Origin: a virus
DNA: 58,613 nucleotides
IMG/VR virus record: IMGVR_UViG_3300045988_115582
Direction: 5' to 3' (one strand)
Below are positions 4,477 to 54,800 of this stretch, one piece after another. The translations under genes were made by a program, and so were the position numbers. A model generated the notes under the pieces. It was not told the DNA's origin and did no database searches. It worked only from the letters and a program-made list of their open reading frames with translations. How positions within the stretch are numbered: position 1 is the first letter of the stretch; every line of letters starts with the position of its first letter.

Positions 4477-4518
4477 TCGGTAGCTGTTTTTGTTTTGCCA
4501 AAATGAGGAAACAATATC

Positions 4519-5145: not shown

Positions 5146-5257
5146 CAATCCATAAGGGTTGCTTTTTTAATACAAATTTTGCACCTATGCGGTAAATAGG
5201 AGAACTCAGCAGGAGCAACCTGCGGTAACAAAAGCGTGAGTTTAACGGAGGTAATTT

Positions 5258-6179: not shown

Positions 6180-7271
6180 ATGGCATTACCATTATCAGAA
6201 GCATTCACAGCGAGAAGTCTCGGAGTAATGTGGAATAACTATGAAAAAACATTAGGTTCTGCCCCTTATCTTGGCAGGCAGAAATTCGGAACAAGAAAAC
6301 AGGACTATCTTGACCTCAGATTCATTAAAGGAAAGAGCGGACTTCCTGTATCGTTAAAAGCATCTGCCTTTGATGCACAAGCAGAATTAAGGGATGTTGG
6401 CGGTTTCTCTGATGTTAAGAACGAAATGCCTTTCTATCGTGAAAGCTACATGGTTACAGAGAGAGAAGAACAGGATTACGCAAATTATCAAAATGCGGAA
6501 AATTCTAGCCTTGCGAATCAGGTACTTAGAGAAATTAGCAAGAAGCCTATGAATCTTATTGAGGGGGCTGTAGTTGTTCCTGAAAGACAGATTTGGAGTT
6601 TGCTTGCCCCGGTTGACGGAGTTCCTAAAATTGATGTTCAGATTGGTAAAAATAAATTTACAGTCGATTATACATCGGACAATGGCGAAGCACACAAAAA
6701 AGACCACTTTATCGAAATAAAAGCCGCAACGGACAAATGGGACGCACCAACAACGGCAACACCCCTCGACGACCTCATTCAAGCAAGAAGAACATTTGCA
6801 AAGAAAACAGGCTATTCATTAACAAGATTTACAATGAATACAGAAACATTTGAAAAACTTCTTGAAGCAGAGGACACAAAGAAGCAGGTGCTTGGTATTG
6901 CAGCATATCAGGGCGGCATCAGGGTACAGCAAGGACAGGTTGTTGATTATCTGAAAGGCTATGGCATTGAGATTGAAGTTTATGACAAACTTTACATTGA
7001 TCCAGCAGATGGTCAGACAAAATATTTTGTGCCAACTGGTGTTATTTGTGCTCAATCGGGCGGAGTGTACCTTGGAGACTATGTGTTTGGCAGAACTCCG
7101 GAGGAAAGAAGCGGAAGCCTTACAGACGGAAATCTTTCTATTGTGGAAACTGGTATCGCTGTTTACACATATACTACAAATCATCCTATCAATACTCATT
7201 GCGTAGTATCTATGATTGGACTGCCAACTTTTGAGGGAATGGATAGTGTTGTAGTAATGAAAGTAATGTAG
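6180..7271 (+). CDS. Major capsid protein (lambda gpE-like family)
   Basis: 363 aa. The N-terminus (FTARSLGVMWNNY...APYLGRQKF) and the length are typical of Phage_cap_E-type capsid proteins. Confidence 0.8.
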   Translation: MALPLSEAFTARSLGVMWNNYEKTLGSAPYLGRQKFGTRKQDYLDLRFIKGKSGLPVSLKASAFDAQAELRDVGGFSDVKNEMPFYRESYMVTEREEQDYANYQNAENSSLANQVLREISKKPMNLIEGAVVVPERQIWSLLAPVDGVPKIDVQIGKNKFTVDYTSDNGEAHKKDHFIEIKAATDKWDAPTTATPLDDLIQARRTFAKKTGYSLTRFTMNTETFEKLLEAEDTKKQVLGIAAYQGGIRVQQGQVVDYLKGYGIEIEVYDKLYIDPADGQTKYFVPTGVICAQSGGVYLGDYVFGRTPEERSGSLTDGNLSIVETGIAVYTYTTNHPINTHCVVSMIGLPTFEGMDSVVVMKVM

Positions 7272-7281
7272 GAGGTGCTAC

Positions 7282-7506
7282 ATGAAAGCGACACACACTA
7301 TTAAGTACAACGGAAAATGGTATAACGCAGGTCAAGAAGTTCCCGAAGATAAACCGGGGGCTTCTTTTGCTTATACTAAAACAGACATAAATCGCATGAG
7401 CACGGCAGACTTACAAGCACTTGCATCTGAAAACGGAATTATAGATGCTGACAGTTTTAGCAGTGCTGATTTGAAAAGTATGTTGATTGAAAAATTCAAT
7501 TTGTAG
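7282..7506 (+). CDS. Hypothetical protein with a SAP/HeH-like C-terminal motif
   Basis: 74 aa. TADLQALASENGI...SADLKSMLIEKF. RBS GGAGG. Confidence 0.55.
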   Translation: MKATHTIKYNGKWYNAGQEVPEDKPGASFAYTKTDINRMSTADLQALASENGIIDADSFSSADLKSMLIEKFNL

Positions 7507-7517
7507 GAGGCAATAAT

Positions 7518-7763
7518 ATGGAATTAAAAGATACAGTCGAGATGATGAACAGCACTAATTATAAAGAAAGATTTAAAGCTGAATATAACCAACTTGCAAT
7601 TAGATACAAAGGTTTAAAAGCAATGCTTGATAAGTGGGATAATGGAACTTTGCAGTTTAAGCCTAATTGCCCGAGAAGTACATATAATATGCAGATTAAA
7701 GCAATGGCAGATTATCTTGCAGTTCTTGAAGCAAGGGCAGTAATGGAAAATATAGATTTGTAG
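7518..7763 (+). CDS. Hypothetical structural-module protein
   Basis: 81 aa. RBS GGAGG. Tightly packed in the head operon. Confidence 0.6.
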   Translation: MELKDTVEMMNSTNYKERFKAEYNQLAIRYKGLKAMLDKWDNGTLQFKPNCPRSTYNMQIKAMADYLAVLEARAVMENIDL

Positions 7764-12567: not shown

Positions 12568-15500
12568 ATGGAGTTAGATAGTTTAGAACTGAAAGTATCG
12601 GCAGAAGCACAGTCGGCAGAAAAAGCACTTGACAGCCTTATAGGTAAATTACAGAGTTTTTCAAAAGCACTTGGCGATATAAACACTACTTCCATCAGCA
12701 AAAATCTTAAAAATCTTGCTAAAGTCGGTGGCCTGAAAACGGTTACTAAAGAGGTAGAGGACTTAGGAAAAACTGTAGACAATGTCGGTAAGAAGAAAAC
12801 AAAGGCTGAGGTTAAAGTCGATGTTAAACAAGGCTTAGAAGCTATTGCAGAATTACAGAAACGATTTGAGAATGCAGATAAAGATATAAAATTTACAGGC
12901 TCTACAACACAGCTTGAGAAACAATATAATAGGCTGTCGAATAGTCTTTCAAAACTCTTTGCAAAAGAAAATGAAGCCCTTGATTTAGGCAAGGCCAGTA
13001 CAGGTGTTGAAAACTTTGTTAAATTAGAGCGTAGAATACAATCAACTATAAACCAGCTTGACACACTTAAAACTAAAATTGCAGAAGCTGAAAAAGCGAA
13101 AGCCGAATTTTTTGAAAAAGAAAATGCAAAAACAAATCAAAATAATAAAGCTGCAATTATGATCCCCTCTGAAAGTGAAATCAAAAAAGCAGCAGATACT
13201 TATCAAAAAAGTATAGAGAAAATATCCGCAAGCACATTACCTAAGCCTGTAGGTTGGACGCAAGCTGAGGGACAAAAAGAACTCTTAAAAATGCAAAAAG
13301 AAGCGAGAGAGGGAACTGCTGGCGCATTAGAGGGATATGACGCAAGAATACAAAAAGCTACAGCCGACCTTAAAGCAGTCGAAAAAAGTGGCAAGGGAAT
13401 GGGTACTGAAGAGTGGGACAATGCGAGCATTGCGTTACAAAAAGTTGTAGCAGAGGCAAAGTGGTATAAAAACACATTAAAAGAAGCAGCTACTGAACTT
13501 GGCGTAAATGTCAAATCTATTAAGGAACTTGAAGCAGAAGAAAGCAGATTAGTACAAAAATCAAATCAACTTGCTAAAAAAGGACTATACGGAAGTACTG
13601 ATTATAACGAAACAATTTATCAGCTCGGACAAGTTAGAGGAGAATTAGATAAACAAAAAACAAAGATTACGGGGGCAAGTAATGCTTTAAAAGGTTATGA
13701 CGAGCGTATTGCACAGGCTAAAATCAATCTTGCTAATATACAAGCTAGCGGTAAGGGAATGGGTACCTCTGAATGGGACAATGCTAAAATGGCTTTGGTT
13801 AAGTTAGAAGATGAAGCAAGGCGGTATAAAGCGGCTTTAAATCAAAAAGCATTAGGACTCGATACCGACATAAAATCAACGGATAACCTCGAAACAAAGA
13901 TAAAGAAATTAAATCTTGCTATAGAGCAAATGAGAAATAGAGGTATTGGTTTCGGTGATACAAATTTTGATAAGTTGTATCAACAACTTAATCAAGCTGA
14001 AAAAGAACTTGCAGAGTATAAAGCTAGACTGACAGAAAGTGAAAACTCAACAAGAAGTTTTGGCAGTACATTAAAGAGTGCAGCAACAGGCTTTTCTAAT
14101 TTTATCAGCAAGATTAAAAACGCTGGAGCAGCAACACTTAATTTTGCTAAGAATGTCCGTAACATGAAATCGCCTTTAAAACTTGCACTCGGTCAAATTA
14201 GTAAATTAGGAAATTCGGTTGCAAGGCTGTATTTCAAGTACATGATGTTGTCAAGGGTTGCTGGTGCACTTGGTAAAGTTCTTGGCATATCAAGTGATTA
14301 TGTAGAGGAATACAACTATTTTCAAAAGGCAATAGATAAGATTGCACAGGAAAATAAAGGTAATTACAAAAAATACGGCTATGATGATGCTAAGAGTTAT
14401 GCGGATAGCTTTGAGGATAGACTTACAACTCTTACAGGCAAAATGACAGGATATAAGCCCGATAAAAATGGAAATCTTATAGATACTGATGTGGCAAGTC
14501 TTGGGCTTGATATTACACAGGTTACAAACTTTGAAGCACAGATTGCACAAATGACAAATTCTGTCGGCATGATGGGCGAAGCGTCTATTGCAACATCAAA
14601 AGCCATGACAATGCTTGCTGGGGATATGTCCTCATTAACAAATATGCCATTAGACACCGTTATGAAAAACTTTTCAAGTGGTCTTTCGGGTGCGGCAATG
14701 GCTGTCAAAAAATACGGCATGGATATATCAGTTGCGGCATTACAGGAAACAGCACTTGGGCTAGGTGTTAAGAAAAATGTTTCTGATATGACACAGGCTG
14801 AGAAAGAGTATTTGCGTGTTATCACTATGTTACAGCAGTCTAAAGTCGCATGGGGCGACTTAGCTAAGACTATCAATTCTCCCGCAAATCAATTTAGAAT
14901 GTTAAAGTCCAATATCAAACAGTGTGGTTTGATGCTTTCAAGGCTGTTTATGCCTGTCATACAAAAAGTATTACCGTGGCTCAACGCAATGGCAATGGCT
15001 GTCAAAGATTTAATGAAATATATCGGTGACTTGTTCGGCTTAAAGTTTGATAGCAGTCTTGGTTCAACAGACAGTGGCACATCAGATACCTATGACGATG
15101 TATCAGACAGTGCCGACAATGCGGCAGACAGTATAAATAATGCGGCAGACGCACAGAAGAAGTTTAACAAGCAGTTGCAAGATTTTGATAAATTAAATAA
15201 CCTTACAACAAACGAAACATCTAAGAAAGACAGTGACAAGGATAAAAATGGCACAGGAGATGTTAGTGGCGTTTTATCTGATGCTCTTATAAATGCTGTC
15301 GAGGATTATGAAAAACGCTGGAATAAAGCGTTTAAAAGCATGACAAGTGATGCTGACAAGCTCAAAGAAAAGATTGAAAAACTGTTTACAACAGCTTGGG
15401 ACACAGGTGACGGAACAGAAATCGGTGAAGCACTTGCGACAACCTTAAATAAGGGCATTGACTGGGTAAATGAAAATACAAGCAAATGGGCTAAAGGCTT

Positions 15501-17943
15501 GAAAAAGATTACCTCAATTATGGGTACTTCTTTAAATGGTTTTGTTGAAAAATTCAAGTGGAAAGGTTTAGGAAAAGCTATAGGCAATTCTATTAAAGCC
15601 GCACTTGAAGCTGAAACAAACTTCTTTAAAAAAGTAAACTGGGTAAATCTTGGAAAAGGCTTGTCGAAAACTCTTAATTCAGCTATCAAAACAGGAGTTT
15701 TGCAGTCATACTTTAAATCAATGGCAAGCAAGTTAAGAGCGGCTATTGAGACAGCGTTTGGGGCAATTACTACTTTTGATTTTAAAGGACTTGGAAATGC
15801 GTTAGGACAGGGAATAAATGACTTTTTTAAGACAATGAATAAGAAAAATAAGCAGACTGGTCTTAATGGTTGGCAAGAACTTGGTAAAAGTTTAAGTGAT
15901 GGCATAAAAGGGATAGCAGATACATTAACTACAGCTTTAAAAAAGGTGAAGTGGGAGAAAGTCGGTCAAAGTATTGGAGATTTTATCTCAGCTATTGATT
16001 TTGGCAAGGTTACTTGGAGCTTATTAGGTTTAGCAGAAGCGTTAGTAAGTGCAATAGGAAGTGCTCTCAAAGGTTCGTTTTCAAAAGCACCTATTGAGAC
16101 AGGTTTATTGGCGGCATTTGCATTGGTAAAATACACTGGCATAGGAAAGTTTATTGCTGGCGAAGTTTCTAAGAAAATGGCGGCTTTTTTAGCTGAAAAA
16201 ATGGGTTTTGAAATCGCAAAAGACGCAGGAATAAGCACAGCTATCAAAACAGGGCTTAAAGGACTTATAGCAAAAGCAGGCTTAACAAGTTTAAGTGTTT
16301 CGGTAGGTGTAGTTGGAATAGCGGCGGCAACGGCAGCATTGGTAGCTTTTTACAATTATGTTGAAAGCAAGGCTGATGAAAAAATAAAGTTAGATATGTC
16401 AGAAGCTAATAAGGCATTAGGTGACTTAAATTCATCAGCGAAAGAATGTGAAAAAGCTGTCAACAAAACTAAAGACGCATTAAAAAAAGTCGAAGAAAGA
16501 GACGAAAACGCAGAAGCTAAAGGCAAAGAAGTTGAAAATTTAGCAAGTGCTTATTATAAACTTTCAAAAAAGGTCAACAAGACAAAAGCTGAAAAGGCAA
16601 TTTTAAAGAGAATGTCAAAAGAACTTTCAAAAGAACTACCGGGCTTAAAAAAGAATGTTGATAAAGAGACAGGAGCATACAAGGGTAGTTGGAAACAGCT
16701 TAAAAAACTTGTTGAAAAAACAAAAGAATATTATAAAGCAAAAGCGGCACAAAAAGACCTTGAAGACATAGGCAATAAACTTTACGAGAATGAAAAAAAG
16801 TTAGCAGAAGCGACTCGAAAAAGCAAAGATGCTTCAGATAAACTGAGAACTGAAAGATACAAGTTAACAAATGAAACAAAACGTTTAAATGAGCTCGAAG
16901 CTAAAAACCTTAGCTGGAAAAGTGGCTCGGCTAATATGACTAAAAAAGAATACGAAGAAATGGAAAAACTTCGTGATGAAGTTCCAAGATTAGCTCTGGC
17001 TATGCAAGATCAAGAAAAGGTCTATAAAAATCATAAAAAAGAACTTGGAGAATTGAAAGATGCACAAAAAGAATTAAACGATAAATATGAAACAGCATCA
17101 GATTTTGTTGAAAAATATACCGGAAAAGTAAAAAGCAATACCTCTAGTGTTGAAAAACAGAAAAAAGCTATAAAAGGCGTTGGAGAGGAAACTGATAAAT
17201 TATCAGGCAAAAAAGCTACTGTTTCTATAGGCTCTAAAGGAGTAGAAAAGACTAAAAAAGATATTAAAAGTATACACGGCAAAACAGTTAAAGTAACGGC
17301 TGATGCTAAAAAAGGGAAAGATTTTAATAAAGTTAAAAAAGCTTATGATGATATCAGGACAAGAAATGCTAATGTAAATGTTTCTATAAAAGGATATGAA
17401 AAACTTAAAGAATCAATGAAAAATCCACTTCTCACTGATTTGGGAAGAAAGAGGACTTTAAAAAGAGATGTCGAAATAACATTTAAAATGAAAAATAACT
17501 TAACAGATAGTGTTTCGAAGGTACTAGGAAATCTCGGTAAAAACAGCAAGAGTAGTAAACCTAAAAAGAAAGCAAAAGGTGGCATATTTGAAAATGGTTC
17601 ATGGCACAATATAACAAAATATGCTACTGGCGGCGTTCCTAACATGGGACAACTTTTCTATGCAAGAGAGGCGGGACCTGAACTGGTAGGTACTCTTAAA
17701 GGTAGAGGAACGGCAGTTATGAATAATGACCAAATTGTAGCATCGGTATCGCAAGGTGTATCAGACGCAGTATATAATGTTATGACACCTGTTTTAACAA
17801 GTCTTGTATCAAGCATAAACCGTATGAATAGTAGCGGCACACCTCTCTATGTCGAGGGGGTTTCTGAGGGCGATATAGTTAAGATCACACAGAATGCTAA
17901 CGCTGATTACAAGAAGCGGTATGGCAAACCTCTTTTCACCTAG
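12568..17943 (+). CDS. Tape measure protein
   Basis: About 1,791 aa with long coiled-coil regions and central hydrophobic segments, downstream of the chaperones. ATG after GAGGTG. Confidence 0.85.
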   Translation: MELDSLELKVSAEAQSAEKALDSLIGKLQSFSKALGDINTTSISKNLKNLAKVGGLKTVTKEVEDLGKTVDNVGKKKTKAEVKVDVKQGLEAIAELQKRFENADKDIKFTGSTTQLEKQYNRLSNSLSKLFAKENEALDLGKASTGVENFVKLERRIQSTINQLDTLKTKIAEAEKAKAEFFEKENAKTNQNNKAAIMIPSESEIKKAADTYQKSIEKISASTLPKPVGWTQAEGQKELLKMQKEAREGTAGALEGYDARIQKATADLKAVEKSGKGMGTEEWDNASIALQKVVAEAKWYKNTLKEAATELGVNVKSIKELEAEESRLVQKSNQLAKKGLYGSTDYNETIYQLGQVRGELDKQKTKITGASNALKGYDERIAQAKINLANIQASGKGMGTSEWDNAKMALVKLEDEARRYKAALNQKALGLDTDIKSTDNLETKIKKLNLAIEQMRNRGIGFGDTNFDKLYQQLNQAEKELAEYKARLTESENSTRSFGSTLKSAATGFSNFISKIKNAGAATLNFAKNVRNMKSPLKLALGQISKLGNSVARLYFKYMMLSRVAGALGKVLGISSDYVEEYNYFQKAIDKIAQENKGNYKKYGYDDAKSYADSFEDRLTTLTGKMTGYKPDKNGNLIDTDVASLGLDITQVTNFEAQIAQMTNSVGMMGEASIATSKAMTMLAGDMSSLTNMPLDTVMKNFSSGLSGAAMAVKKYGMDISVAALQETALGLGVKKNVSDMTQAEKEYLRVITMLQQSKVAWGDLAKTINSPANQFRMLKSNIKQCGLMLSRLFMPVIQKVLPWLNAMAMAVKDLMKYIGDLFGLKFDSSLGSTDSGTSDTYDDVSDSADNAADSINNAADAQKKFNKQLQDFDKLNNLTTNETSKKDSDKDKNGTGDVSGVLSDALINAVEDYEKRWNKAFKSMTSDADKLKEKIEKLFTTAWDTGDGTEIGEALATTLNKGIDWVNENTSKWAKGLKKITSIMGTSLNGFVEKFKWKGLGKAIGNSIKAALEAETNFFKKVNWVNLGKGLSKTLNSAIKTGVLQSYFKSMASKLRAAIETAFGAITTFDFKGLGNALGQGINDFFKTMNKKNKQTGLNGWQELGKSLSDGIKGIADTLTTALKKVKWEKVGQSIGDFISAIDFGKVTWSLLGLAEALVSAIGSALKGSFSKAPIETGLLAAFALVKYTGIGKFIAGEVSKKMAAFLAEKMGFEIAKDAGISTAIKTGLKGLIAKAGLTSLSVSVGVVGIAAATAALVAFYNYVESKADEKIKLDMSEANKALGDLNSSAKECEKAVNKTKDALKKVEERDENAEAKGKEVENLASAYYKLSKKVNKTKAEKAILKRMSKELSKELPGLKKNVDKETGAYKGSWKQLKKLVEKTKEYYKAKAAQKDLEDIGNKLYENEKKLAEATRKSKDASDKLRTERYKLTNETKRLNELEAKNLSWKSGSANMTKKEYEEMEKLRDEVPRLALAMQDQEKVYKNHKKELGELKDAQKELNDKYETASDFVEKYTGKVKSNTSSVEKQKKAIKGVGEETDKLSGKKATVSIGSKGVEKTKKDIKSIHGKTVKVTADAKKGKDFNKVKKAYDDIRTRNANVNVSIKGYEKLKESMKNPLLTDLGRKRTLKRDVEITFKMKNNLTDSVSKVLGNLGKNSKSSKPKKKAKGGIFENGSWHNITKYATGGVPNMGQLFYAREAGPELVGTLKGRGTAVMNNDQIVASVSQGVSDAVYNVMTPVLTSLVSSINRMNSSGTPLYVEGVSEGDIVKITQNANADYKKRYGKPLFT

Positions 17944-18013: not shown

Positions 18014-18832
18014 ATGAGAAAAAGTTTTTTTACAAAGATTGTAGCATTTTTAGGGATAGCAACTCTTGTTATTTCCAGTACCTATACTACATCCTATGCA
18101 GTATGTAATCACAGATGGGTTTTAGATTCTAGTTTTAGTGAAAAACCTACATGTTCTGAGGCGGGCTATAATTGGTATGATTGTTCTATTTGTGGCGATT
18201 CTAAGAAAGTGACTGTTCCAGCGACAAGAATACATAAATGGACTGAATGGAAAGCTGATGGTTATTTATGTGAGGATGGAAAGTGGGAAAGATATTGCAC
18301 TGAATGTTACAAAGAAGAAACAAAAGCAAGACAAGGTGATGGCTCACATTTATGGTCTAATTGGGAAGTGTGGACAGAAGCTGACTGTTTAAACAAAGGG
18401 CAGGAAAGCAGATATTGTTATAATTGCTATCAAAGAGAATACAAGGATATTCCAGTTGATGACACGAAACATAATTGGAGCGAATGGAGCACAGGATGGG
18501 TATATTCTGTCGAGCCAACTATTTTTAAAGCAGGAAAGCAAACAAGATTCTGTTATACATGCTCAAAAGTTGAAGAAAAGGAAATGCCTAAATTAAAAGC
18601 AACAGTTTCAATATCATGCAAGAGCAAAACTTTAAAAGTAGGTGAAAAGCTGAAATTAAAAATAAAGAAAAGAACTTATCCCGATGTATTGAAAAATTGG
18701 ACTACTGACAATAAAAAAGTTGCTACAGTCAATAAAAAAGGAAAAGTTTTGGCTGTTAAAAAAGGAAAAGCTACAATAACCTTAAAAATGAAAAGTGGCT
18801 GTACGGCAACTTGTAAGGTAAAAGTTAAATAA
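18014..18832 (+). CDS. Secreted Cys-rich repeat protein with a C-terminal bacterial Ig-like (Big_2) domain
   Basis: N-terminal signal/TM peptide, four HxW..W...C...G...C..C modules, and C-terminus ATVNKKGKVLAVKKGKATITLK..GCTATCKVKV. Confidence 0.7.
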   Translation: MRKSFFTKIVAFLGIATLVISSTYTTSYAVCNHRWVLDSSFSEKPTCSEAGYNWYDCSICGDSKKVTVPATRIHKWTEWKADGYLCEDGKWERYCTECYKEETKARQGDGSHLWSNWEVWTEADCLNKGQESRYCYNCYQREYKDIPVDDTKHNWSEWSTGWVYSVEPTIFKAGKQTRFCYTCSKVEEKEMPKLKATVSISCKSKTLKVGEKLKLKIKKRTYPDVLKNWTTDNKKVATVNKKGKVLAVKKGKATITLKMKSGCTATCKVKVK

Positions 18833-20894: not shown

Positions 20895-23561
20895 ATGCTT
20901 AATCTTACAGATAGTGAAAAAGAGAGTTTTTATAAAAGCGGTGCGTACTTTAATGACTATGAATTTAATTTTACCGATTTGAATTTTACAATTACAAATG
21001 AAACACTACATCAAGAAAGCGTGACAATTAAAGAAAGCATATGTGATAGTGAGGATTTGCAGTTAGGTGGTTGTATTGCATCGTCATGTGAATTTGAGGT
21101 ATCAGAACTTGCAGGGAAAGAACTTGCAGGACTGAAATTTACGGCAAGATTATTAGTAAATGATGGTAAAGACGCAGTTGTAAAAATGGGTAAATATCGT
21201 GTTGATAGTGCAAAGCGTGTGAATGATAAAGACTATAGAAAAATTGTTGCTTATGATGCTTTATATGATGCACAAATAGATGTTTCCGACTGGTATAACA
21301 AAGTTTTCTATGTAGTATCTGAATATGAAGAAGTAGTTGCAGTTGGAGATATTGATGATTTATGGGAACACGGAGACTATTATATTGATAATTCGGGAAG
21401 TAAACCACCTTGGATAGCGTTTTTTGCGAATGGTGCAGTACCCGAAGAATGTCAAGATACAACATATCTTGATACATCAACAGGCAAATTATACGAAGCA
21501 CAAAATACAAGTAAAGACGAAGATAACGAATTATATCGTTGGGTTGAAGTGTATCAATGTAAAAGGAAAACAACCACGAAGCGTATTTACGCAAAAACAA
21601 CATTAAGAAAACTAAGAGAAAGTCTTTTAAATCACTTGAACATTTCTTTTATAGAACAGGATTTAATAAATGATGATGTAACTATCGAGAGGACATTTGA
21701 TGCTAGCGATACTGGTGAAATCATCGGCACAGATATACTAAAATACATTTGTGAATTAAATGCTGGATTTGGAAAAATAAATCGTGATGGAAAATTTGAA
21801 GTAATTCAATTGACAAGTGCGGGGTTATATCCCGAAGAAACATTGTACCCATCTGAGGATTTATACCCCGAAGAAAGCAATTATGAGCTTTTAAGTGCAG
21901 AAGAAAACGAAGCTAATTATATTTCTGTAGCTTATGAAGAATATGAAACAGAAGCTATTACGGGTGTTATAGTAAAAAGCAATAGTGATGATGTTGGTCA
22001 AGTTGTAGGGACAAAAGATAATGCTTATATGCTTACTGGAAATCCTTTGATATACAATAAGACCTCAGAAGATTTAACAAAAATCGGACAAAATATATTT
22101 GCAAAAATAAAAGGAATTACATACAGACCAAACACAACAACTTTAGAGGGGTTACCGTACTTAGAAACAGGCGATTATTATATTCTGACAAAAAACAATG
22201 ACGATGTTGGTTCGCCTATATTTACGAGAACATTGGCAGGAGTACAAGCATTAAAAGACACTTATGAGAGCAAAGGAAACAAACTAAGAGTAAATGAAGA
22301 TACGCAAACCTCAGAAATTATGAGTTTGCAATCAAAAACAATGAAAATTCAAAAAGGTGTTGACGGACTGTTGATAGAGGTTACAGACCTTGACGAAAAT
22401 ACAAGTTCAAGATTTGAACAGACAGCAAGCAAAATTGAAGCCGAAGTAAAAAGAGCAAGCAACGCTGAGGGAGAACTTTCGGGCAGGATTACTGTTACTG
22501 CCGACCAAATAACGCAGGAAGTATCAAGAGCCAAAGGAGCAGAGGGAGACCTATCGTCTCGGATAACGATGACAGCGGATGATATCACAGCAGAGGTAAG
22601 TCGAGCAAAGGGAGCAGAGGGAGACCTATCGTCTCGGATAACGATGACAGCAAATGAAATCAGCTCAAAGGTATCAAAAGGTGATGTTTGTTCTGAAATA
22701 AATCAGAGTGCTGAGCAAATTACATTATCAGGTAACAGGCTTGTGGTGAACAGCACGAATTTTCAATTAGATGGATATGGAAATGCTACATTTAGCGGAA
22801 ATTTAAGTGCTGCTACTGGAACTTTTGCAGGTGATTTATCAGCACCAGTAGTAAGATTTTATGGCTTGGTAAGTACAAATAATGCAATGACAATAGATGG
22901 CACAAGTGGGGTGTTACATGGTTCGGTATCTGGAGATTATGCTTCTGTAAATAAAGTGTCAACAGACAGCATATATAATAGGGGTACAAATAAGATTAAA
23001 ATATATATTGATTATGATGAAGGCTATGGTGTAATACTCGACAAAAATTCATCAAACAAATACCATTTCAGACCTGGTTCTAATGATTCACTAGACTGCG
23101 GTTCATCATCGTATAAGTGGGATAATATATATGCGACAAATGGCACAATACAGACATCTGATCGTAATGAAAAGACAAACATTGCTGACATGACAGAACA
23201 ATATGCAAAGATGTTAATAGATGGAGCTATGCCTAAGACATATCAGATGCGTGGTGGAAAAAGTGGAAGGACACATGCAGGAATGATATCGCAGGACCTA
23301 GAATGGCAGCTTATGCAAAATGGTATGTCATCACAGGATTTTGCAGGATTCATTAAATATGCAAAGGAAGATGAGAATGGATATCCAACAGGTCAGTTTG
23401 GATACGGGATACGCTATGAAGAATATATTGCACCGCTAATAAAGTATTGTCAGATGCTAAAAAGAAATTTGCAGGCAGAAAGAGAGTTTAGGGTGCAGAT
23501 GCAGAGCGATATTCTGAACATACAAGGTGAAATTGGCATTTTAAAGCAACAGTTGAAATAA
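20895..23561 (+). CDS. Tail-tip/fibre protein with a C-terminal peptidase S74 intramolecular chaperone domain
   Basis: 888 aa. C-terminus TSDRNEKTNI...GRTHAGMISQDLEWQL matches the endosialidase-chaperone motif. Contains internal 25-aa repeats. Confidence 0.75.
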   Translation: MLNLTDSEKESFYKSGAYFNDYEFNFTDLNFTITNETLHQESVTIKESICDSEDLQLGGCIASSCEFEVSELAGKELAGLKFTARLLVNDGKDAVVKMGKYRVDSAKRVNDKDYRKIVAYDALYDAQIDVSDWYNKVFYVVSEYEEVVAVGDIDDLWEHGDYYIDNSGSKPPWIAFFANGAVPEECQDTTYLDTSTGKLYEAQNTSKDEDNELYRWVEVYQCKRKTTTKRIYAKTTLRKLRESLLNHLNISFIEQDLINDDVTIERTFDASDTGEIIGTDILKYICELNAGFGKINRDGKFEVIQLTSAGLYPEETLYPSEDLYPEESNYELLSAEENEANYISVAYEEYETEAITGVIVKSNSDDVGQVVGTKDNAYMLTGNPLIYNKTSEDLTKIGQNIFAKIKGITYRPNTTTLEGLPYLETGDYYILTKNNDDVGSPIFTRTLAGVQALKDTYESKGNKLRVNEDTQTSEIMSLQSKTMKIQKGVDGLLIEVTDLDENTSSRFEQTASKIEAEVKRASNAEGELSGRITVTADQITQEVSRAKGAEGDLSSRITMTADDITAEVSRAKGAEGDLSSRITMTANEISSKVSKGDVCSEINQSAEQITLSGNRLVVNSTNFQLDGYGNATFSGNLSAATGTFAGDLSAPVVRFYGLVSTNNAMTIDGTSGVLHGSVSGDYASVNKVSTDSIYNRGTNKIKIYIDYDEGYGVILDKNSSNKYHFRPGSNDSLDCGSSSYKWDNIYATNGTIQTSDRNEKTNIADMTEQYAKMLIDGAMPKTYQMRGGKSGRTHAGMISQDLEWQLMQNGMSSQDFAGFIKYAKEDENGYPTGQFGYGIRYEEYIAPLIKYCQMLKRNLQAEREFRVQMQSDILNIQGEIGILKQQLK
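22536..22651 (+). repeat. In-frame tandem duplication (75-nt period) with two identical 41-nt cores
   Basis: ggagcagagggagacctatcgtctcggataacgatgacagc occurs at 22536-76 and 22611-51. A third, diverged copy lies upstream (about 22456). Confidence 0.85.
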
Positions 23562-23575
23562 GGAGGAAATAAAAA

Positions 23576-23821
23576 ATGGTAAAATTAAACAAACAAACTA
23601 CAGTAACAGGAGCATGTGTATTGACAGTTGATGGAAAGGAAGAACAAGTAGCATATATGAACGCTTCAATTCCAGTCGGCGGCGCACCTAACATTGGGAA
23701 AGCCATTCAGAATGTAGAGTTATTCAATGAAAACAAAGAGGAAGTATTGAAAGACTTTGCGGCATTTGACAATTATGTATATAGCCTTATGGAAACAGAG
23801 GAAACAAAAACAGCAGAATAA
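23576..23821 (+). CDS. Hypothetical tail-module protein
   Basis: 81 aa. RBS GGAGG. Confidence 0.6.
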   Translation: MVKLNKQTTVTGACVLTVDGKEEQVAYMNASIPVGGAPNIGKAIQNVELFNENKEEVLKDFAAFDNYVYSLMETEETKTAE

Positions 23822-27432: not shown

Positions 27433-28154
27433 ATGATTTACAAATTTTTGAAAGTTCAGAATTTGGAAAAATCCGGACAGTTGAAATTGATGGCAAGCCA
27501 TATTTTGTAGCAACAGATGTAGCAAGGGCACTTGGATATTCTAATCCACGCAAAGCAGTTAATGACCATTGCAAGGGAGTAACAAAATGTGACACCCCTA
27601 CATCTAGTGGTGTTCAGCGAATGTCATACATAAATGAGGGCGATTTGTACCGCCTTATTATGAAATCAAAATTGCCTAGTGCAGAAAAATTTGAAAGCTG
27701 GGTGATGGATGAGGTTCTTCCTACCATTAGAAAGACAGGTTCTTACAACAAGCCTATGACAACAGCGGAAAAAATCCACTTACTTGCACAGAGCGACGAG
27801 GAATTAACTCACAGGGTAGATGAAGTCGAAGCAGAGGTTGAAGAACTGAAAGAAACAATGCCGTTACTTGCGGTTGATTGCGACAGGATAACAAATGCAG
27901 TCAAAGCAAAAGGCGTTGAAACACTCGGCGGTAAAGATAGTAATTCATACAAGGACAGGTCATTGCGTGGTCGTGTATATGCTGATATTCACAGAGAAGT
28001 AAAAAGACAGTTCGGAGTTACTACATATAAAGCTATAAAGCGTAATCAGTGTGAAAAGGCTGTTGCGTTTGTGAGAAATTACAATGTGCCGTTTGTTTTG
28101 CAGGAAGAAATAGCAGAAAACAATGCACAGTTGAATTTGGAGGTAACAGCATGA
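27429..28154 (+). CDS. Bro-N / ORF6C-type antirepressor
   Basis: LQIFESSEFGKIRTVEIDGKPYFVATDVARALGY...EKFESWVMDEVLPTIRKTG. Confidence 0.8.
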   Translation: MNDLQIFESSEFGKIRTVEIDGKPYFVATDVARALGYSNPRKAVNDHCKGVTKCDTPTSSGVQRMSYINEGDLYRLIMKSKLPSAEKFESWVMDEVLPTIRKTGSYNKPMTTAEKIHLLAQSDEELTHRVDEVEAEVEELKETMPLLAVDCDRITNAVKAKGVETLGGKDSNSYKDRSLRGRVYADIHREVKRQFGVTTYKAIKRNQCEKAVAFVRNYNVPFVLQEEIAENNAQLNLEVTA

Positions 28155-28750: not shown

Positions 28751-29533
28751 ATGAGTATAAAAGCATACAAAGGTTTTAACAAAGATATGACTTGCCGTGG
28801 TTTTCAGTATGAAGAGGGCAAGGAATACGAAACAGAGATGGCGAAGTGTTGTGAGAGTGGTTTTCACGCTTGCGAGTATCCGTTAGATTGTTTTTATTAT
28901 TATTCACCGAATAAGAGTGTTTATCACGAGGTGGAATTAGATGGGAATACAGATGATGATCGTGGTGATGATACAAAGATAGCATCGACAAAAATTAAAA
29001 TTGGTGCAAGTTTGAACATTGCCGGGATTGTTAAAGCGGCTATTGAATATACAAGCAAGAGAAGCAAAAAAGAAAATGGCTGTGATGGAGATTATGGTGC
29101 TTCATCAGCTACCGGAGATTGTGGTGCTTCATCAGCTACCGGAGATTATGGTGCTTCATCAGCTACCGGATATAAAGGTGCTTCATCAGCTACCGGATAT
29201 AAAGGTGCTTCATCAGCTACCGGAGATTATGGTGCTTCATCAGCTACCGGAAATTGTGGTGCTTCATCAGCTACCGGATATAAAGGTGCTTCGAGTGCAG
29301 AAGATAAAGAAAGCATAGCTGTTGCTTGGGGCTATCATGGAAAAGCAAAGGGTGTCATAGGCTCTTATCTTGTATTAGCTGACTGGGAGGGTGACGAAAA
29401 TGATTACTGGACGCAGGAATTATGGTCGCTTAAAGGTGCAAAGATGGTAAGAGTTGACGGCGAAAAAATCAAAGAAAACACATGGTACACCATGAAGAAC
29501 GGTGAAATTGTAGAGGTGAAAGAAGATGAATAA
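28751..29533 (+). CDS. Repeat protein: Cys-containing N-domain plus GASSATG-xx nonapeptide array
   Basis: 260 aa. N-terminus KAYKGFNKDMTCRGFQYEEGKEYE..CCESGFHACEYPLDCFYYY, then 7.5 copies of GASSATG(DY/DC/YK/NC). Confidence 0.7.
   Translation: MSIKAYKGFNKDMTCRGFQYEEGKEYETEMAKCCESGFHACEYPLDCFYYYSPNKSVYHEVELDGNTDDDRGDDTKIASTKIKIGASLNIAGIVKAAIEYTSKRSKKENGCDGDYGASSATGDCGASSATGDYGASSATGYKGASSATGYKGASSATGDYGASSATGNCGASSATGYKGASSAEDKESIAVAWGYHGKAKGVIGSYLVLADWEGDENDYWTQELWSLKGAKMVRVDGEKIKENTWYTMKNGEIVEVKEDE
29090..29299 (+). repeat. 27-bp in-frame tandem repeat array (about 7.5 copies) with an invariant 21-nt core
   Basis: ggtgcttcatcagctaccgga is identical in 7 copies. Only the 6-nt linker varies (gattat, gattgt, tataaa, aattgt). 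Confidence 0.9.
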
Positions 29534-43384: not shown

Positions 43385-44746
43385 ATGGAATGTGTTGCGT
43401 ATATGAGAGTATCAACAGAAAAGCAGGTTGAAGAAGGCTATGGACTTGAAAGTCAGCAAAGAGACATCAAAGAGTATTGCCAAAAAAATAATATGATAAT
43501 ATCTCACTGGTATATTGATGCTGGTCTGACTGGTATGGAGATGAGTAAAAGAGTTGCATTACAAGAACTTATTTCTGATTTAAAGAAGATAGATAAAGTG
43601 GTTATCTATAAGCTTGATAGACTTTCGAGAGATAGTGTTGATGCTTTAAATATGATTGAAAAAATATTCGTGCCTAGAAACGTAGAAGTGTTAAGTGTGC
43701 ATGATTTTGCAAAATATAAAACGCCACAGGATAAATTTCAAACTCAAATTATGGCAGCAGTAGCGGAGTATGACAGAAACACTATGTTACTCCGTATGCG
43801 TGGCGGTATGTTGGAAAGAATAAAACAAGGCTACTGGCCGGGTGGAGGCAATACACCTTATTGCTATTCTTATAGTAAAGAGACAGGAACACTTGTGCCG
43901 ATACCGGGAAGAAAAAAACAAGCAAATGAAGCAATAGACTTGTTTTTACAAGGCTATTCAGATAACAAAATTCGTGATATGTTAGGCTTCAAAAGTGAAT
44001 TTGTTGTAAGACATATACTTACAAGTAAGGTCAATATAGGCTATATACCATATAAGGGCAAAATTTACAAAGGTAAACATGAGCCGATTTTTGAACTTGA
44101 TAAATTTAATTTAGCGCAGGAAGTTAGAAAAAATCGAAGAAAAAAGAAAACGACTTGTATAAGCAAAGAGCCAAATTTACTTACTGGATTATGCTATTGT
44201 GGTGTTTGCGGATGCGCCATGCGTTATCAAAAATGGACACATGGAAAGCATAAGATATATTGTATGTCTCGAAACAAGTCTATGAATTATCTTCCTAATT
44301 ATAATGCTGATTGTAATAACTCTCTTGAATGGGCTGTTGATATTGAAAAACAAGTTGAAGAAGAAATAATTAAAATATCATTGAATTTGTCATCAGAAAA
44401 GCCAGTTGCAAAACAAAGTAAAATCGAAATTTTACAGTCGCAGATAAAAAAAGAAGAAAACCGCAGAAAAAGATTGTTTAATTTGTATGCCGACGGAAAC
44501 GATGATGTATTGGTGAGTATAAAAGAAATCAACAATACAATTAAGGATTTGGAAGAACAGCTTGAAAATGAAATATCAAATGCCAATATAAATAAGAAGA
44601 AAAGCATTACCTATAAAAACATAAAAAAAATTGCCGATGTTTGGGACAGCATCGACAAAAGAGATAAAAACACTATACTCAAGAGTATAATTGATAAGAT
44701 TGTTATAGTCAATGGAAACATAGAAATACAATTGAAGAATTTTTAG
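43385..44746 (+). CDS. int: Large serine recombinase (phage integrase)
   Basis: Resolvase-type N-terminus AYMRVSTEKQ...YKLDRLSRD, a recombinase domain, a Zn ribbon CYCGVCGC and a coiled-coil C-terminus. Confidence 0.85.
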   Translation: MECVAYMRVSTEKQVEEGYGLESQQRDIKEYCQKNNMIISHWYIDAGLTGMEMSKRVALQELISDLKKIDKVVIYKLDRLSRDSVDALNMIEKIFVPRNVEVLSVHDFAKYKTPQDKFQTQIMAAVAEYDRNTMLLRMRGGMLERIKQGYWPGGGNTPYCYSYSKETGTLVPIPGRKKQANEAIDLFLQGYSDNKIRDMLGFKSEFVVRHILTSKVNIGYIPYKGKIYKGKHEPIFELDKFNLAQEVRKNRRKKKTTCISKEPNLLTGLCYCGVCGCAMRYQKWTHGKHKIYCMSRNKSMNYLPNYNADCNNSLEWAVDIEKQVEEEIIKISLNLSSEKPVAKQSKIEILQSQIKKEENRRKRLFNLYADGNDDVLVSIKEINNTIKDLEEQLENEISNANINKKKSITYKNIKKIADVWDSIDKRDKNTILKSIIDKIVIVNGNIEIQLKNF

Positions 44747-49629: not shown

Positions 49630-49725
49630 TAACTATACAGCGGTTATTATATACATAGATAGGAAAAACAAGGCTAACAAGAAAAACGGCTGTATAAGGC
49701 TGTAGCAAAGAGATAAGCATACACG

Positions 49726-49758
49726 AAAAAAGAGACTGTAAAAAGTCTCTTTTCTTTT
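49726..49758. terminator. Bidirectional Rho-independent terminator
   Basis: Stem AAGAGACT/AGTCTCTT, with an A-run on one side and a T-run on the other. Confidence 0.75.
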
Positions 49759-49859
49759 CCAAAATGTAGCTATTAAAATAATAGTTAAATATAATTTATT
49801 GTTTACATCCCAAAATGTGCTATTAAATACAATTACTAAATATAAACTATTATTTACAT
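49759..49859 (-). CRISPR. crRNA-like mini-array: handle-only start, 21-nt spacer, one full 30-nt repeat, 20-nt spacer, truncated repeat
   Basis: Minus strand reads ATGTAAAT | AATAGTTTATATTTAGTAATT | GTATTTAATAGCACATTTTGGGATGTAAAC | AATAAATTATATTTAACTAT | TATTTTAATAGCTACATTTTGG. It can equally be read as two imperfect 51-bp direct repeats. Confidence 0.45.
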
Positions 49860-49866
49860 CGTAATC

Positions 49867-49895
49867 ATTTTATGATATTTTCGGCTCGATGTCAA
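49867..49895 (-). promoter_or_regulatory. Consensus promoter TTGACA-17-TAAAAT driving the mini-array
   Basis: -35 at 49895-90 and -10 at 49872-67 (minus strand). The predicted start site is about 7 nt downstream, at the ATGTAAAT handle. Confidence 0.65.
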
Positions 49896-49899
49896 TATT

Positions 49900-50601
49900 T
49901 TAAGCTAAAAATATCGGATTATCGTTATCAAAAAGATTGCTGAAAATTTTAGTGTCTTTATCTAGATAACGGCATCTCACTTTATTAAACTTCCTAAATC
50001 CTTTTTTAGTATATTCATATTTTTTATTTATATTATATGATATGCTACACAAATCGTCAGGTACAAAAATCTCAGGAACATAAGCATCTTTTTTTAATGT
50101 CCCTATTTCGTTCTTTTCTTGTAACTCAACAATTTCAACATCATCAACTCGTAACAAATCTTCATAACGCCCTAATGACAAAAATTTGCGTGGAAATTTC
50201 AAAGATGTATAGGCCACTTCAAGATCATCATCATCTACAGTTTGTATATAAATTTCAAGCTGTAAATTTGCTAAATAATAAAATGTTTTAGGCGATTGAA
50301 CCCAGCCGGTATAACTGCTGTCATTTTCATCTTCAACAATTACTGACCATCTTTTTTTAATTTCTTCTGTGATTGTCTTAAATTTCGCCCCACCTTGCCA
50401 CTGCATTTTCAGCTCTTTATTTATATAACCTTTTCCCGATATAAAAAAATTCATGTCATGGTACTCATGCCAGCCGCAGGCGTTATGTACCATACCTGAC
50501 ACTGTTGAAAATGGTGGCAGGGGTAAAATATCAGGAGAGCAAGACAAACTTACAGGAAACCTTGCGGTTTCCATGTAAGCGTTTAATTTAACTGCTTTCA
50601 T
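49900..50601 (-). CDS. cas5: Cas5-like RAMP protein (subtype I-B-like), solitary
   Basis: MKAVKLNAYMETARFPVS...ILPLPPFSTVSGMVHNACG and LSLGRYEDLLRVDDVEIVEL resemble Cas5 N- and C-terminal signatures. The start is moved to the ATG after AGAGG. Confidence 0.55.
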   Translation of the reverse strand: MKAVKLNAYMETARFPVSLSCSPDILPLPPFSTVSGMVHNACGWHEYHDMNFFISGKGYINKELKMQWQGGAKFKTITEEIKKRWSVIVEDENDSSYTGWVQSPKTFYYLANLQLEIYIQTVDDDDLEVAYTSLKFPRKFLSLGRYEDLLRVDDVEIVELQEKNEIGTLKKDAYVPEIFVPDDLCSISYNINKKYEYTKKGFRKFNKVRCRYLDKDTKIFSNLFDNDNPIFLA

Positions 50602-50611
50602 TGCTTTACCT

Positions 50612-50803
50612 CTATTCTGCTTCACATTCAAAGCCTAAAAGAATATTTTTATAAAGTTCTTCACTGATATTCTCTTCTAAAAGAGGTTTTCTGTTCTCAA
50701 ATCCGAGTTCCGCATCAAGTGAAGCGTCAATTTCTTCTAATGCTTTTTCTCTACTAAATCCCAACTCCATAACCTCATTTAATAAATCAATAGTTTTTTT
50801 CAT
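50612..50803 (-). CDS. Small acidic protein (63 aa), anti-defence candidate
   Basis: ATG after AAAGGTG. Very acidic (EEIDASLDAELGFEN...EENISEELY..ECEAE). Confidence 0.55.
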   Translation of the reverse strand: MKKTIDLLNEVMELGFSREKALEEIDASLDAELGFENRKPLLEENISEELYKNILLGFECEAE

Positions 50804-50864
50804 AATAGTCACCTTTTAACCTTTCTTTTATTTTTTATAATTATATCTTTTATAGTGATGTTTT

Positions 50865-51062
50865 TCAATTACTGCTTCCCATATTTTTACCCTCCACTTC
50901 TTCAATATAAATTCTTTCTGTTTTGCCGGTGTCATCATCTTCATAGACTCCGCCGAAGTCGTCCCACCAACTTTCGGCACCTCTTTTGTTATATGTCTGC
51001 CCTCCAAGGAGAACTGTACCACTTTCTGTAACCAATCTGTATTTTTTGTTATCTTTCTTCAT
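50865..51062 (-). CDS. Small acidic protein (65 aa), anti-defence candidate
   Basis: ATG after GGAGG. WWDDFGGVYEDDDTGKTERIYIEEVEG. The overlapping ORF 50828..51022 is rejected. Confidence 0.55.
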   Translation of the reverse strand: MKKDNKKYRLVTESGTVLLGGQTYNKRGAESWWDDFGGVYEDDDTGKTERIYIEEVEGKNMGSSN

Positions 51063-51234: not shown

Positions 51235-51259
51235 ATAAAAAAGAAAAGAGGTGCTATAC

Positions 51260-51487
51260 ATGGAGAAAAGAAAAAATACTTATAAAGGAAATATATCTTA
51301 TAAAAGATTGTGGGAAACGATGGAACGACGCAATATAACAAAAATGAACTTAAAAAATGACTTTAATCTATCACCTACGCTAGTCAATAGATTAGTTAAA
51401 AATCAGAATGTGAGTGTTGACACAATAATGTATTTGTGTGACTGCTTAGATTGTCAGCCTTGCGATATTTTAGAATATGTAAAGTAA
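51260..51487 (+). CDS. XRE/Cro-type HTH regulator (Aca-like position)
   Basis: LWETMERRNITKMNLKNDFNLSPTLVNRLVKNQNVSVDTIMYLCDCLDCQPCDILEYV. ATG after GAGGTG. Confidence 0.7.
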   Translation: MEKRKNTYKGNISYKRLWETMERRNITKMNLKNDFNLSPTLVNRLVKNQNVSVDTIMYLCDCLDCQPCDILEYVK

Positions 51488-54047: not shown

Positions 54048-54119
54048 TGGGGTATCGTCAAGAGGTTAAGGCATAGCACTTTGACTGCTACATCATGGGT
54101 TCAAATCCCATTACCCCAG
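54048..54119 (+). tRNA. tRNA-Gln (anticodon TTG)
   Basis: Full cloverleaf: acceptor TGGGGTA/TACCCCA, anticodon arm TAGCA-CTTTGAC-TGCTA, T arm ATGGG-TTCAAAT-CCCAT. Closely resembles the E. coli tRNA-Gln layout. Confidence 0.85.
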
Positions 54120-54160
54120 TTTGGCAAGATATGCCATCTTTGTTTTTCTTCTTGCAAAAT

Positions 54161-54259
54161 CGCGGAGAAAAGCTCCTTTCCCACACTAGCGGAATGCTGT
54201 TAAGAGCCATCGCACGGCTCGGTGTGGTTGTTCGGGTGTCTATCCCACGATGCCCGAAC
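54161..54259 (+). ncRNA. GC-rich structured element of unknown class
   Basis: Helices seen: GGAG/CTCC, CCACAC/GTGTGG enclosing AGC/GCT and GAGCC-ATCGCAC-GGCTC, then TTCGGG/CCCGAA. There is no credible ORF. Confidence 0.35.
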
Positions 54260-54371
54260 TTACATACTTTTTCTGTACTGGACTAATGTAGTTCCATTAC
54301 AACTTTCACACCAATAACACATAGGTGCTTGCATACCATCTTAAAAGCCTATACAGAGGTGTATGCAACTT

Positions 54372-54443
54372 TGGCATATAGTTCAATGGTAGAACACCTG
54401 ACTGTTAATCAGGATGTCGCAGGTTCGATACCTGCTATGCCAG
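54372..54443 (+). tRNA. tRNA-Asn (anticodon GTT)
   Basis: Acceptor TGGCATA/TATGCCA, D arm GTTC-AATGGTA-GAAC, anticodon arm CCTGA-CTGTTAA-TCAGG, T arm GCAGG-TTCGATA-CCTGC. Confidence 0.85.
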
Positions 54444-54636
54444 TTATGTCAACACTTGTGCAGAAACCAATGTCGGCAATGGAAGAACAGAAACTAGCTG
54501 TTGACATTATACTTTTACTCTCGACAAACATCAATAAGGATGGTTCGGGAACGGTATAACAAAGTCCGTATGAATTATACAAATACAGCAACAAAAATAG
54601 TTCAATCCGTAAGTGGATGCTGTGCACTTACGGTAT

Positions 54637-54717
54637 CGGATAGTAGTTCAGTTGGAAGAACAACCATTGCGATAACAGTAGTAGGTGGAGTCACAGGTTC
54701 AATTCCTGTCTATCCGA
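54637..54717 (+). other. tRNA-like element with a defective or non-canonical anticodon arm
   Basis: Good acceptor (CGGATAG/CTATCCG), D arm (GTTC-AGTTGGAA-GAAC) and T arm (ACAGG-TTCAATT-CCTGT). No 5-bp anticodon stem or 7-nt loop can be drawn. A 9-bp hairpin precedes it (54607-33). Confidence 0.4.
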
Positions 54718-54800
54718 TGGCAATATGCTGTTGTTTACTGACGGCATATTGAATAACCGAATAATATGCCCACGCAAAAATACTAGTTACGACGCGGGTG

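Follow-up and report, generated by a model that had tools for sequence, protein, structure and literature searches.

A putative creR-mimicking mini-array beside an orphan Cas5 homologue in a phage of Butyribacter intestini-type bacteria

The gut phage record IMGVR_UViG_3300045988_115582 (here called the window: the whole stretch of 58,613 nucleotides (nt) that was analysed, to which all coordinates refer unless a contig label is given) carries a solitary gene for a homologue of the CRISPR protein Cas5 and, behind it, a mini-array of two short guides and repeat-like units, with all elements of both on the minus strand. We consider with high confidence, from sequence comparison, that the RNA half is a type I-B viral mimic of creR (a Cracr array) directed against the cas6 promoter in Butyribacter intestini-type bacteria. 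In these, creR is the CRISPR RNA (crRNA)-like RNA by which the host I-B Cascade would repress its own operon, cas6-cas8b-cas7-cas5-cas3, at the promoter. The reading that we favour, at a probability of about 0.75, is that the viral copy of creR makes the host I-B machinery silence its own cas genes, and that the viral Cas5 acts as a faulty or altered subunit of Cascade. Both halves belong to known anti-CRISPR (Acr) classes, and the new part is their tight pairing, which appears to be undescribed; a full-text literature search found no description of a viral Cas5 paired with a crRNA-like RNA. The initial annotation of this locus, made from the sequence alone, knew of no such combination, and the novelty that it suggested can be kept for the pairing but not for viral mini-arrays, Cracr arrays, Cas5-homologue Acrs or orphan viral cas5 genes, all of which are known.

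The mini-array and its match to host creR

Re-reading of the sequence between 49500 and 50800 located each element where the initial annotation had placed it, including the open reading frame (ORF), the promoter, the handle, the segments of 21, 30 and 20 nt and the truncated unit. The cas5-like ORF (49900..50601, minus strand, 233 amino acids (aa)) starts with the ATG at 50601 and stops at 49900-49902. It is followed by a sigma-70-type promoter, TTGACA-17-TAAAAT, at 49867..49895 (TTGACA 49895-49890, TAAAAT 49872-49867), from which transcription is predicted to start approximately 6-7 nt past the -10, at (G)ATGTAAAT. This handle-only repeat remnant (49852..49860), read as GATGTAAAT, begins six bases after the -10 and would form the predicted 8-nt 5' handle of guide 1 at the start of the transcript. 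Guide 1, or pseudo-spacer 1, has 21 nt (49831..49851, AATAGTTTATATTTAGTAATT) and leads into a full repeat-like unit of 30 nt (49801..49830, GTATTTAATAGCACATTTTGGGATGTAAAC), which presumably provides the 3' repeat part of the first RNA, the Cas6 site and the 5' handle of the second RNA. Guide 2, or pseudo-spacer 2, has 20 nt (49781..49800, AATAAATTATATTTAACTAT) and is followed by a terminal repeat-like unit of 22 nt without the 8-nt handle (49759..49780, TATTTTAATAGCTACATTTTGG). RNA folding gives an intrinsic-terminator-like hairpin, AAAGAGAC...GTCTCTTT with a U-run, at about 49726..49753, between convergent genes; it was not called by a strict terminator scanner and is conserved in relatives. 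A single mature type I crRNA is built of a handle, a guide and the 5' part of a repeat. Tandem Repeats Finder reports a 51-nt unit in 2.0 copies with 82% identity at 49759-49860, and thus the period of the array equals handle plus guide plus 5' repeat part.

The promoter scores 11/12 and is among the three best sites in 2 kilobases. The stretch is AT-rich and has many promoter-like hexamers (17, with 10.7 expected), and therefore the promoter call rests mainly on conservation of the site at the same position in diverged relatives (given here by our contig labels): the same hexamers with the same spacing and position occur in L001, L009, L019 and L203, and L005 and L205 have TTGACG/TTGACA-17-TATAAT. 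The layout of the -10, six nt and GATGTAAAT is likewise kept in L001, L019 and L203. The promoter proposed by the initial annotation is upheld by this conserved position. In L009 (~3745) the first handle is mutated to GATATAAAA.

Cellular I-B loci beside the nearest cellular Cas5 proteins have a repeat family with the sequence ...CCATATTGGAATGTAAAT, and the phage units resemble these related repeats with z = about 5-8 over shuffles. Two of these loci possess native mini-arrays ahead of cas6, each with a pseudo-spacer of 21 nt. In the Longibaculum-type locus (L013/L014, 6500-6700), 17 pseudo-spacer bases proximal to the protospacer-adjacent motif (PAM) match a CCT-flanked site near the cas6 -35, and the target in L013 abuts TTGACA-17-TATACT; on these matches the arrangement is read as the CreR autorepressor layout and as an independent instance of the same circuit. 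A second Firmicute I-B locus has a mini-array with a 21-nt guide by cas6 (L015 4956-5045; L016 ~533-620), for which no target of the L015 guide was found. Longibaculum-type and other I-B organisms were rejected as hosts of the phage, their array spacers having no match to it.

The organism behind the guides was reached by a scan of viral and metagenome contigs for the handle together with a conserved guide, followed by a context filter. The scan gave 38 viral and more than 120 metagenome matches, mostly due to chance with such an AT-rich pattern, and 13 passed the filter, five of which are I-B operons with the order cas6-cas8b-cas7-cas5-cas3 and with the element divergent upstream of cas6. Cas7 of these five operons shares 98% identity with the representative of a 90%-identity cluster in which the named members are Butyribacter intestini. 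Six longer host contigs yield the CRISPR repeat GATTTAATAGGAACATAATGGGATGTAAAT with spacers of 33-39 nt (mode 36). This repeat and the phage 30-nt unit have in common ATTTAATAG..ACAT..TGGGATGTAAA, which answers the comparison with host repeats that the initial annotation had proposed, and the host repeat ends in ATGTAAAT, as that annotation had stated for clostridial I-B repeats.

Immune spacers connect the same host to the phage. B. intestini-type I-B spacers match the window over 34 of 34 nt at 23756..23789 (minus strand, CCA PAM, spacer of L198) and over 33 of 34 nt at 18084..18117 (plus strand, CCT PAM, L194). Two further protospacers lie at 27753..27789 (minus strand, 36/37, L196), where the 5' flank is TCT and not CCW, and at 50905..50939 (plus strand, 32/35, L198), where the 5' flank is CTT and the site falls inside the minus-strand anti-defence block; these two are imperfect and have non-CCW flanks, as expected of escape variants. 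Host spacers also match sister phages perfectly, the perfect matches bearing CCA or CCT PAMs. Three independent lines thus tie the phage to this host, namely repeat mimicry, immune spacers and creR identity, and on these we identify the cognate host as a Butyribacter intestini-type Lachnospiraceae. In the host contig L194, genes for a DUF4869-like, an AAA_22-like and a 233-aa protein lie between cas3 and the CRISPR array (14116-15660).

The B. intestini-type I-B loci have a native creR-like mini-array divergent from cas6, at 4195-4285 in L083, at 2440-2530 in L115, in L101, L118 and L150, and upstream of cas6 (~7200-7596) in L194-L199. Guide 1 is identical over 21/21 nt to the creR pseudo-spacer of L083, and the first 16 nt of guide 2 are identical to that of L115 and L199; a Cracr RNA is defined by at least 9 PAM-proximal nt identical to the pseudo-spacer of a host CreR or CreA (Liu et al., bioRxiv 10.1101/2024.10.29.618823). 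In addition, the 23 nt TTTTAATAGCTACATTTTGGAAA (49778-49756), which reach 3 nt past the terminal unit, are identical to the second creR pseudo-repeat of L115, which has no handle. Collinearity between the phage units and host creR extends from the 3' portion of pseudo-repeat 1 into pseudo-repeat 2, which has no handle in the host either; this points to direct capture of creR and its later duplication.

The target of the guides reads, on the cas6 strand, CCA, protospacer, a gap of 0-3 nt or an overlap, and a TTGAC(A/T) -35, placed 121-136 nt before the ATG of cas6; for guide 1 it is CCA / AATAGTTTATAAATAGTTACT / TAC / TTGACA. The immune PAM is CCA or CCT, and the guide targets carry CCA. Comparison of 11 host loci gave three promoter variants. 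Variant A (L083) is best matched by guide 1 with 17/21 nt, an 11-nt seed and mismatches at positions 12, 13, 18 and 20, which are the same as those of L083's own creR. Guide 2 is best for variant B (L115 and L199; 19/20, mismatch at 17) and for the commonest, variant C (L101, L118, L150 and L194-198; 18/20, mismatches at 12 and 18). The creR of the variant C hosts themselves has mismatches only at positions 6 and 12. By these alignments the two guides appear jointly to cover all three promoter variants seen. In type I Cascade every sixth base of the guide is unpaired, so that mismatches at positions 6, 12 and 18 should be of no consequence; every sixth guide base is also marked in the figures of an earlier survey (PMC10120712). 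The host search for the guides that the initial annotation had called for therefore ends at a CCA-flanked site in the cas6 promoter. Within the window no target of guide 1 or guide 2 exists at three or fewer mismatches, which rules out self-targeting of the phage.

Similar I-B host mini-arrays upstream of cas6 have been predicted together with Clostridium phage copies (Shmakov 2023, PMC10120712). Those cases resemble ours in the position of the host array, in the PAM-flanked target between array and cas6, in a phage copy that is slightly shorter and has the seed-proximal part of the guide in common, and in the Firmicutes I-B hosts; they differ in that they come from Clostridium perfringens phages and a Fusobacterium-related phage, have single guides and are reported with no cas5, and tblastn against GenBank phages did not find the window Cas5 homologue in those phages. 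Cracr RNAs and arrays were defined by Liu et al. (bioRxiv 10.1101/2024.10.29.618823), who showed repression of cas or creT promoters, with guides of 21-24 nt multiplexed against variants and with AcrIF24 synergy via guide length. The window array shares with them the viral copying of CreR or CreA, the short guides, the use of two guides against variants, the cas promoter target and a location within an anti-defence island, beside the gene of a known or, in the window, putative anti-CRISPR protein. In contrast, the tested Cracrs are of types V-A, I-E and I-F, the multi-guide ones of types I-C, I-E and I-F, and I-B is represented only by predicted single candidates; the partner there is AcrIF24 and not a Cas homologue, Cas5 is never mentioned, and the first handle is set by an upstream repeat, whereas that of the window is set by the promoter. 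The window has these sequence traits of Cracrs and viral mini-arrays: a position outside a CRISPR-cas locus, host-like repeats, a PAM-flanked cas promoter target and short guides.

Compared with host CreR, the window copy has collinear and partly identical units and the same guide length, PAM and target, but it lies on a phage away from the cas operon and has two guides and a near-consensus promoter. A canonical CRISPR array would be the wrong description, the guides being of 20-21 nt (immune spacers have 33-39 nt), mutually similar and conserved between phages. The phage RNAs known as Racrs (Camara-Wilpert 2023, PMC10651486) also mimic repeats and also lie beside acr genes, as RacrIC1 and AcrIC5 do on one transcript. 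Racrs are decoys and the RacrIF1 product has no handle, whereas the units of the window element bear handles and target-matched guides, and its target is a promoter; with such units it falls outside the definition of a solitary-repeat decoy.

The viral Cas5 homologue and its lineages

Judged by profile matches and by a modelled fold, the ORF at 49900-50601 encodes a genuine, though divergent, homologue of type I-B Cas5. TIGR01895 matches residues 1-220 of the protein (model positions 1-206 of 217, E=5.1e-20) and the PADLOC Cas5b model matches with E=1.3e-20. The AlphaFold2 model, with a predicted local distance difference test (pLDDT) value of 90.2 and a predicted template-modelling score (pTM) of 0.81, has as top Foldseek matches the Cas5 chains of solved I-B, I-A and I-E Cascades (prob 1.00, TM ~0.5), and a profile search of PDB sequences with the viral protein gave nothing. 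The hallmark Cas5 motifs PLPPxSTxxGMxHxxCG and LSLGRxEDL are retained, and a W(Q/K)GG insertion is specific to the viral clade, being absent from the aligned cellular Cas5 proteins and from AcrIB3. Identity to the cognate host Cas5 is 31.8%. The I-B-like Cas5 call of the initial annotation is in this way borne out by profile and fold matches, with curated cut-offs not reached. Its statement that no other cas gene is present also agrees with a tblastn search of the window with 11 proteins of the B. intestini-type cas locus (8 Cas and 3 uncharacterised), in which only Cas5 was found; the gene is for this reason regarded as solitary. Its neighbours are small ORFs of unassigned function, and it does not stand in a cas operon beside cas7 and cas8b.

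The nearest functional precedent is AcrIB3, a Cas5 homologue of Listeria mobile elements that enters Cascade and stops DNA engagement, with homologues reported only in Listeria (Katz, bioRxiv 10.1101/2023.06.24.545427). In Table S3 of the same work, the orphan viral cas5 genes already include close relatives of the window gene; the entries comprise the viral genomes of L019, L020 and L024, for which Lachnospiraceae hosts are predicted. Like the window protein, AcrIB3 is a full-length Cas5 homologue that stands alone on a mobile element and is approximately 35% identical to the cognate Cas5; unlike it, AcrIB3 has no adjacent crRNA-like RNA reported. The viral Cas5 falls outside the AcrIB3 sequence clade as judged by pairwise identity and by the insertion. 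Among GenBank phages, a near-identity DNA search of the locus gave no match and a protein search gave only two 'Listeria phage' records. The candidate L200 (OR846720.1 36372-42100, 'Listeria phage LM 4-11-1', UNVERIFIED_ORG) was rejected as an orphan AcrIB3 because the record contains an I-B operon; this operon is complete (cas8b-cas7-cas5-cas3-cas1), and it either belongs to a CRISPR-Cas system carried by a phage or comes from host DNA that entered the assembly.

Relatives of the viral Cas5 with 57-97% identity were found on phage-sized metagenomic contigs, and an adjacent mini-array is present in all nine sampled viral Cas5 lineages (45-97% identity), in two gene orders. The array is downstream of cas5 in eight of these lineages and upstream in L021 (45% identity), where it stands between the promoter and the ribosome-binding site (RBS) of the gene. 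Two-guide arrays occur in the window, L019, L001-4, L009-12 and L203 and one-guide arrays in L005-8, L020 and L205; L201 has a different 20-nt guide without a separate promoter, on a different phage backbone, and at least three guide families exist among the lineages. The guides are conserved between phages (AATAnnTTATATTTAnnnATT), unlike acquired spacers, and for this reason are not taken as such. A 13-nt duplication is seen at the junction of guide 1 and repeat in L001 (3770-3800), and an IS605-family insertion lies just downstream of the array in L002 (~4035-5554). In the more distant viral Cas5 lineages L023-L026 no mini-array was found within the DNA available around the genes.

The sister phages L066, L129, L048 and L071 have a single-guide mini-array in the same slot, convergent with a DUF4417 gene, and small ORFs of 71, 69, 55 and 126 aa, respectively, replace the Cas5 gene; these ORFs are candidates for new anti-CRISPR proteins. 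There is thus a notable asymmetry, in which the sampled Cas5 clade always comes with the RNA and the RNA also occurs behind unrelated small ORFs.

Proposed mechanism and competing explanations

Direct support exists for the homology, the fold, the identity of the host, the identity of guides and creR, the target site with its PAM and the linkage of the parts. We propose that a copy of host creR was duplicated into the two-guide phage array and that its dedicated promoter would give an RNA which host Cas6 would cut within the central repeat. The products would be two mini-crRNAs, each made of an 8-nt ATGTAAA(T/C) handle, a guide of 20-21 nt and a 3' repeat part, and starting with ATGTAAAT for guide 1 and with ATGTAAAC for guide 2. 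The point of transcription start would fix the first 5' handle, and as the last unit is handle-less, no further product would arise. Loaded in host Cascade, the guides would pair with the CCA-flanked site adjoining or overlapping the -35 of the cas6 promoter, guide 1 suiting one host promoter variant and guide 2 the other two, and from published CreR and Cracr work guides of 20-21 nt should permit binding and not Cas3 cleavage. The outcome would be a tighter autorepression of the cas operon together with competition with immune crRNAs for Cas proteins. For the viral Cas5, the role of a faulty or altered Cascade subunit, as for AcrIB3, is the most likely one. This course agrees with one suggestion of the initial annotation, a hijack crRNA that represses in the manner of CreA or CreR, seeing that the guides copy the host creR pseudo-spacer and match the PAM-flanked cas6 promoter site.

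Several points weigh against this reading. The transcription start, Cas6 processing, Cascade loading, repression and the anti-CRISPR or other activity of the protein are inferred, and the host assignment rests on metagenomic contigs, spacer matches and cluster names. The TIGR01895 score of 72 bits is below the curated cut-off of 96.7, and PF09704 gives 22.7 bits (E=1e-4), below its cut-off of 23. With 34% identity, the viral Cas5 is no nearer to AcrIB3 than to cellular Cas5 (31-38%), which weakens the functional analogy with AcrIB3 and makes an independent capture likely on sequence grounds. No prophage copy of the viral Cas5 was found in representative genomes, where only cellular Cas5 at 38% identity or less was seen. 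Guide 1 has mismatches at the paired positions 13 and 20, and these also occur in the host creR. Sister phages have the array in the corresponding slot with no Cas5 gene, and thus the RNA has no need of the viral Cas5. Finally, a block of DNA binding by the viral Cas5, if its action is the same as that of AcrIB3, would defeat a repressor RNA that depends on Cascade; either the viral Cas5 acts at a different step, or it discriminates between complexes, or it helps the viral RNA.

The last of these ways out leads to a helper role, which we regard as rather unlikely, in which the viral Cas5 is not an inhibitor and caps the viral handles, including the end of guide 1 defined by the transcription start, to form with host Cas7, Cas8b and Cas6 a cleavage-incompetent mini-Cascade that silences the cas6 promoter. 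Such a role would spare the RNA the clash with a DNA-binding block of the AcrIB3 kind, and it suits the adjacent mini-array in every sampled lineage of the Cas5 clade through two gene orders and swapped guides, the apparent co-transcription of RNA and gene in L201 and L021, and the core Cas5 motifs kept alongside the clade-specific W(Q/K)GG insertion. It is opposed by the arrays without a Cas5 gene in sister phages and by the lack of a mini-array in the distant lineages L023-L026 within the DNA available; moreover, host Cas5 should already cap the same handle, and no handle difference separates viral from host RNAs. A stronger form, which we likewise hold to be doubtful, makes Cas5 and RNA an obligate module: the viral Cas5 would cap the viral guides, with one handle independent of Cas6 through the transcription start, would build with host Cas7, Cas8b and Cas6 a short hybrid Cascade capable of repression only, and would spoil the complexes of full-length immune crRNAs.

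The initial annotation had put forward a repeat decoy reinforced by a Cas5 mimic, and the phage units do resemble host repeats, Racrs beside acr genes are known (PMC10651486) and crRNA competition is also part of the Cracr mechanism (bioRxiv 10.1101/2024.10.29.618823). A pure decoy of the Racr type, in which a repeat-like RNA only sequesters Cas6 and Cas7 and the guide-like segments have no targeting role, is nevertheless improbable: the phage units keep handle and guide, unlike the RacrIF1 product without a 5' handle (PMC10651486), conservation of the guides equals or exceeds that of the repeats, their sequences are those of host creR pseudo-spacers (in part for guide 2) and match a PAM-flanked promoter site, and the two guides cover three host promoter variants. 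What stands of that proposal is that competition for Cas proteins may contribute and that an inhibitor mimicking Cas5 is still plausible. A non-functional remnant, that is a decaying phage array or captured host DNA, or else a weapon between phages, is very improbable. Phage-borne mini-arrays in inter-viral conflict exist (cited in PMC10120712) and the terminal repeat appears truncated, but this 'truncation' is already present in host creR, the guides are shorter than immune spacers, and they match the host cas6 promoter and nothing in this phage. The degenerate array considered in the initial annotation is further contradicted by the conservation of promoter, handle, guide length and terminator over lineages of 45-97% protein identity and two gene orders.

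Genomic surroundings and implications

Directly upstream of the cas5-like gene, the ORF list has a 66-aa ORF of unassigned function (50612..50812, minus strand), for which no Pfam match was found. Its stop codon overlaps the AGAGG RBS of the cas5-like gene, which makes it a probable operon partner, and homologous small ORFs also stand before the cas5-like gene in relatives; it is a candidate for a small anti-defence protein. Divergent from the minus-strand block is a gene for a 78-aa Cro/C1-type helix-turn-helix protein (51251-51487, plus strand; PF13443, E=2e-14), and HTH_26 genes also border this block in relatives. The 78-aa protein could serve the anti-defence operon as an Aca-like regulator.

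A terminase gene is present in the window, a cas operon is not; when GenBank phages are compared by terminase, the closest is Dulem virus 39, which comes from lemur faeces (79%). A large serine recombinase gene (43385-44746, plus strand) suggests that the phage is temperate. Rfam found three tRNAs only, and these genes (Gln-TTG, Asn-GTT and Ser-CGA) lie at 54048-54718 on the plus strand; PHROGs gave no meaningful match. In-frame tandem repeats occur in ORFs of the structural region at 29087-29292 (27 nt x7.6) and 22528-22673 (75 nt x1.9).

The locus provides a sequence-resolved I-B example of a phage hijacking CRISPR autoregulation in an abundant butyrate producer of the human gut, in which the host, the repeat, the immune spacers, the host creR, the PAM, the promoter target and the three variants covered by two guides are identified together. 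One conserved module here joins two recent anti-CRISPR strategies, Cas-protein mimics and crRNA-like regulatory RNAs, and it raises the question of how a Cas5 mimic coexists with an RNA that requires a working Cascade. The corresponding conflict between AcrIF24 and Cracr RNAs is solved by guide length, and a solution based on Cas5 would be a different mechanism. If the obligate module were true, it would represent a takeover of a type I effector by protein plus RNA, not two adjacent independent inhibitors. I-B mini-Cascades with short guides are, in addition, of interest for practical use as compact repressors.

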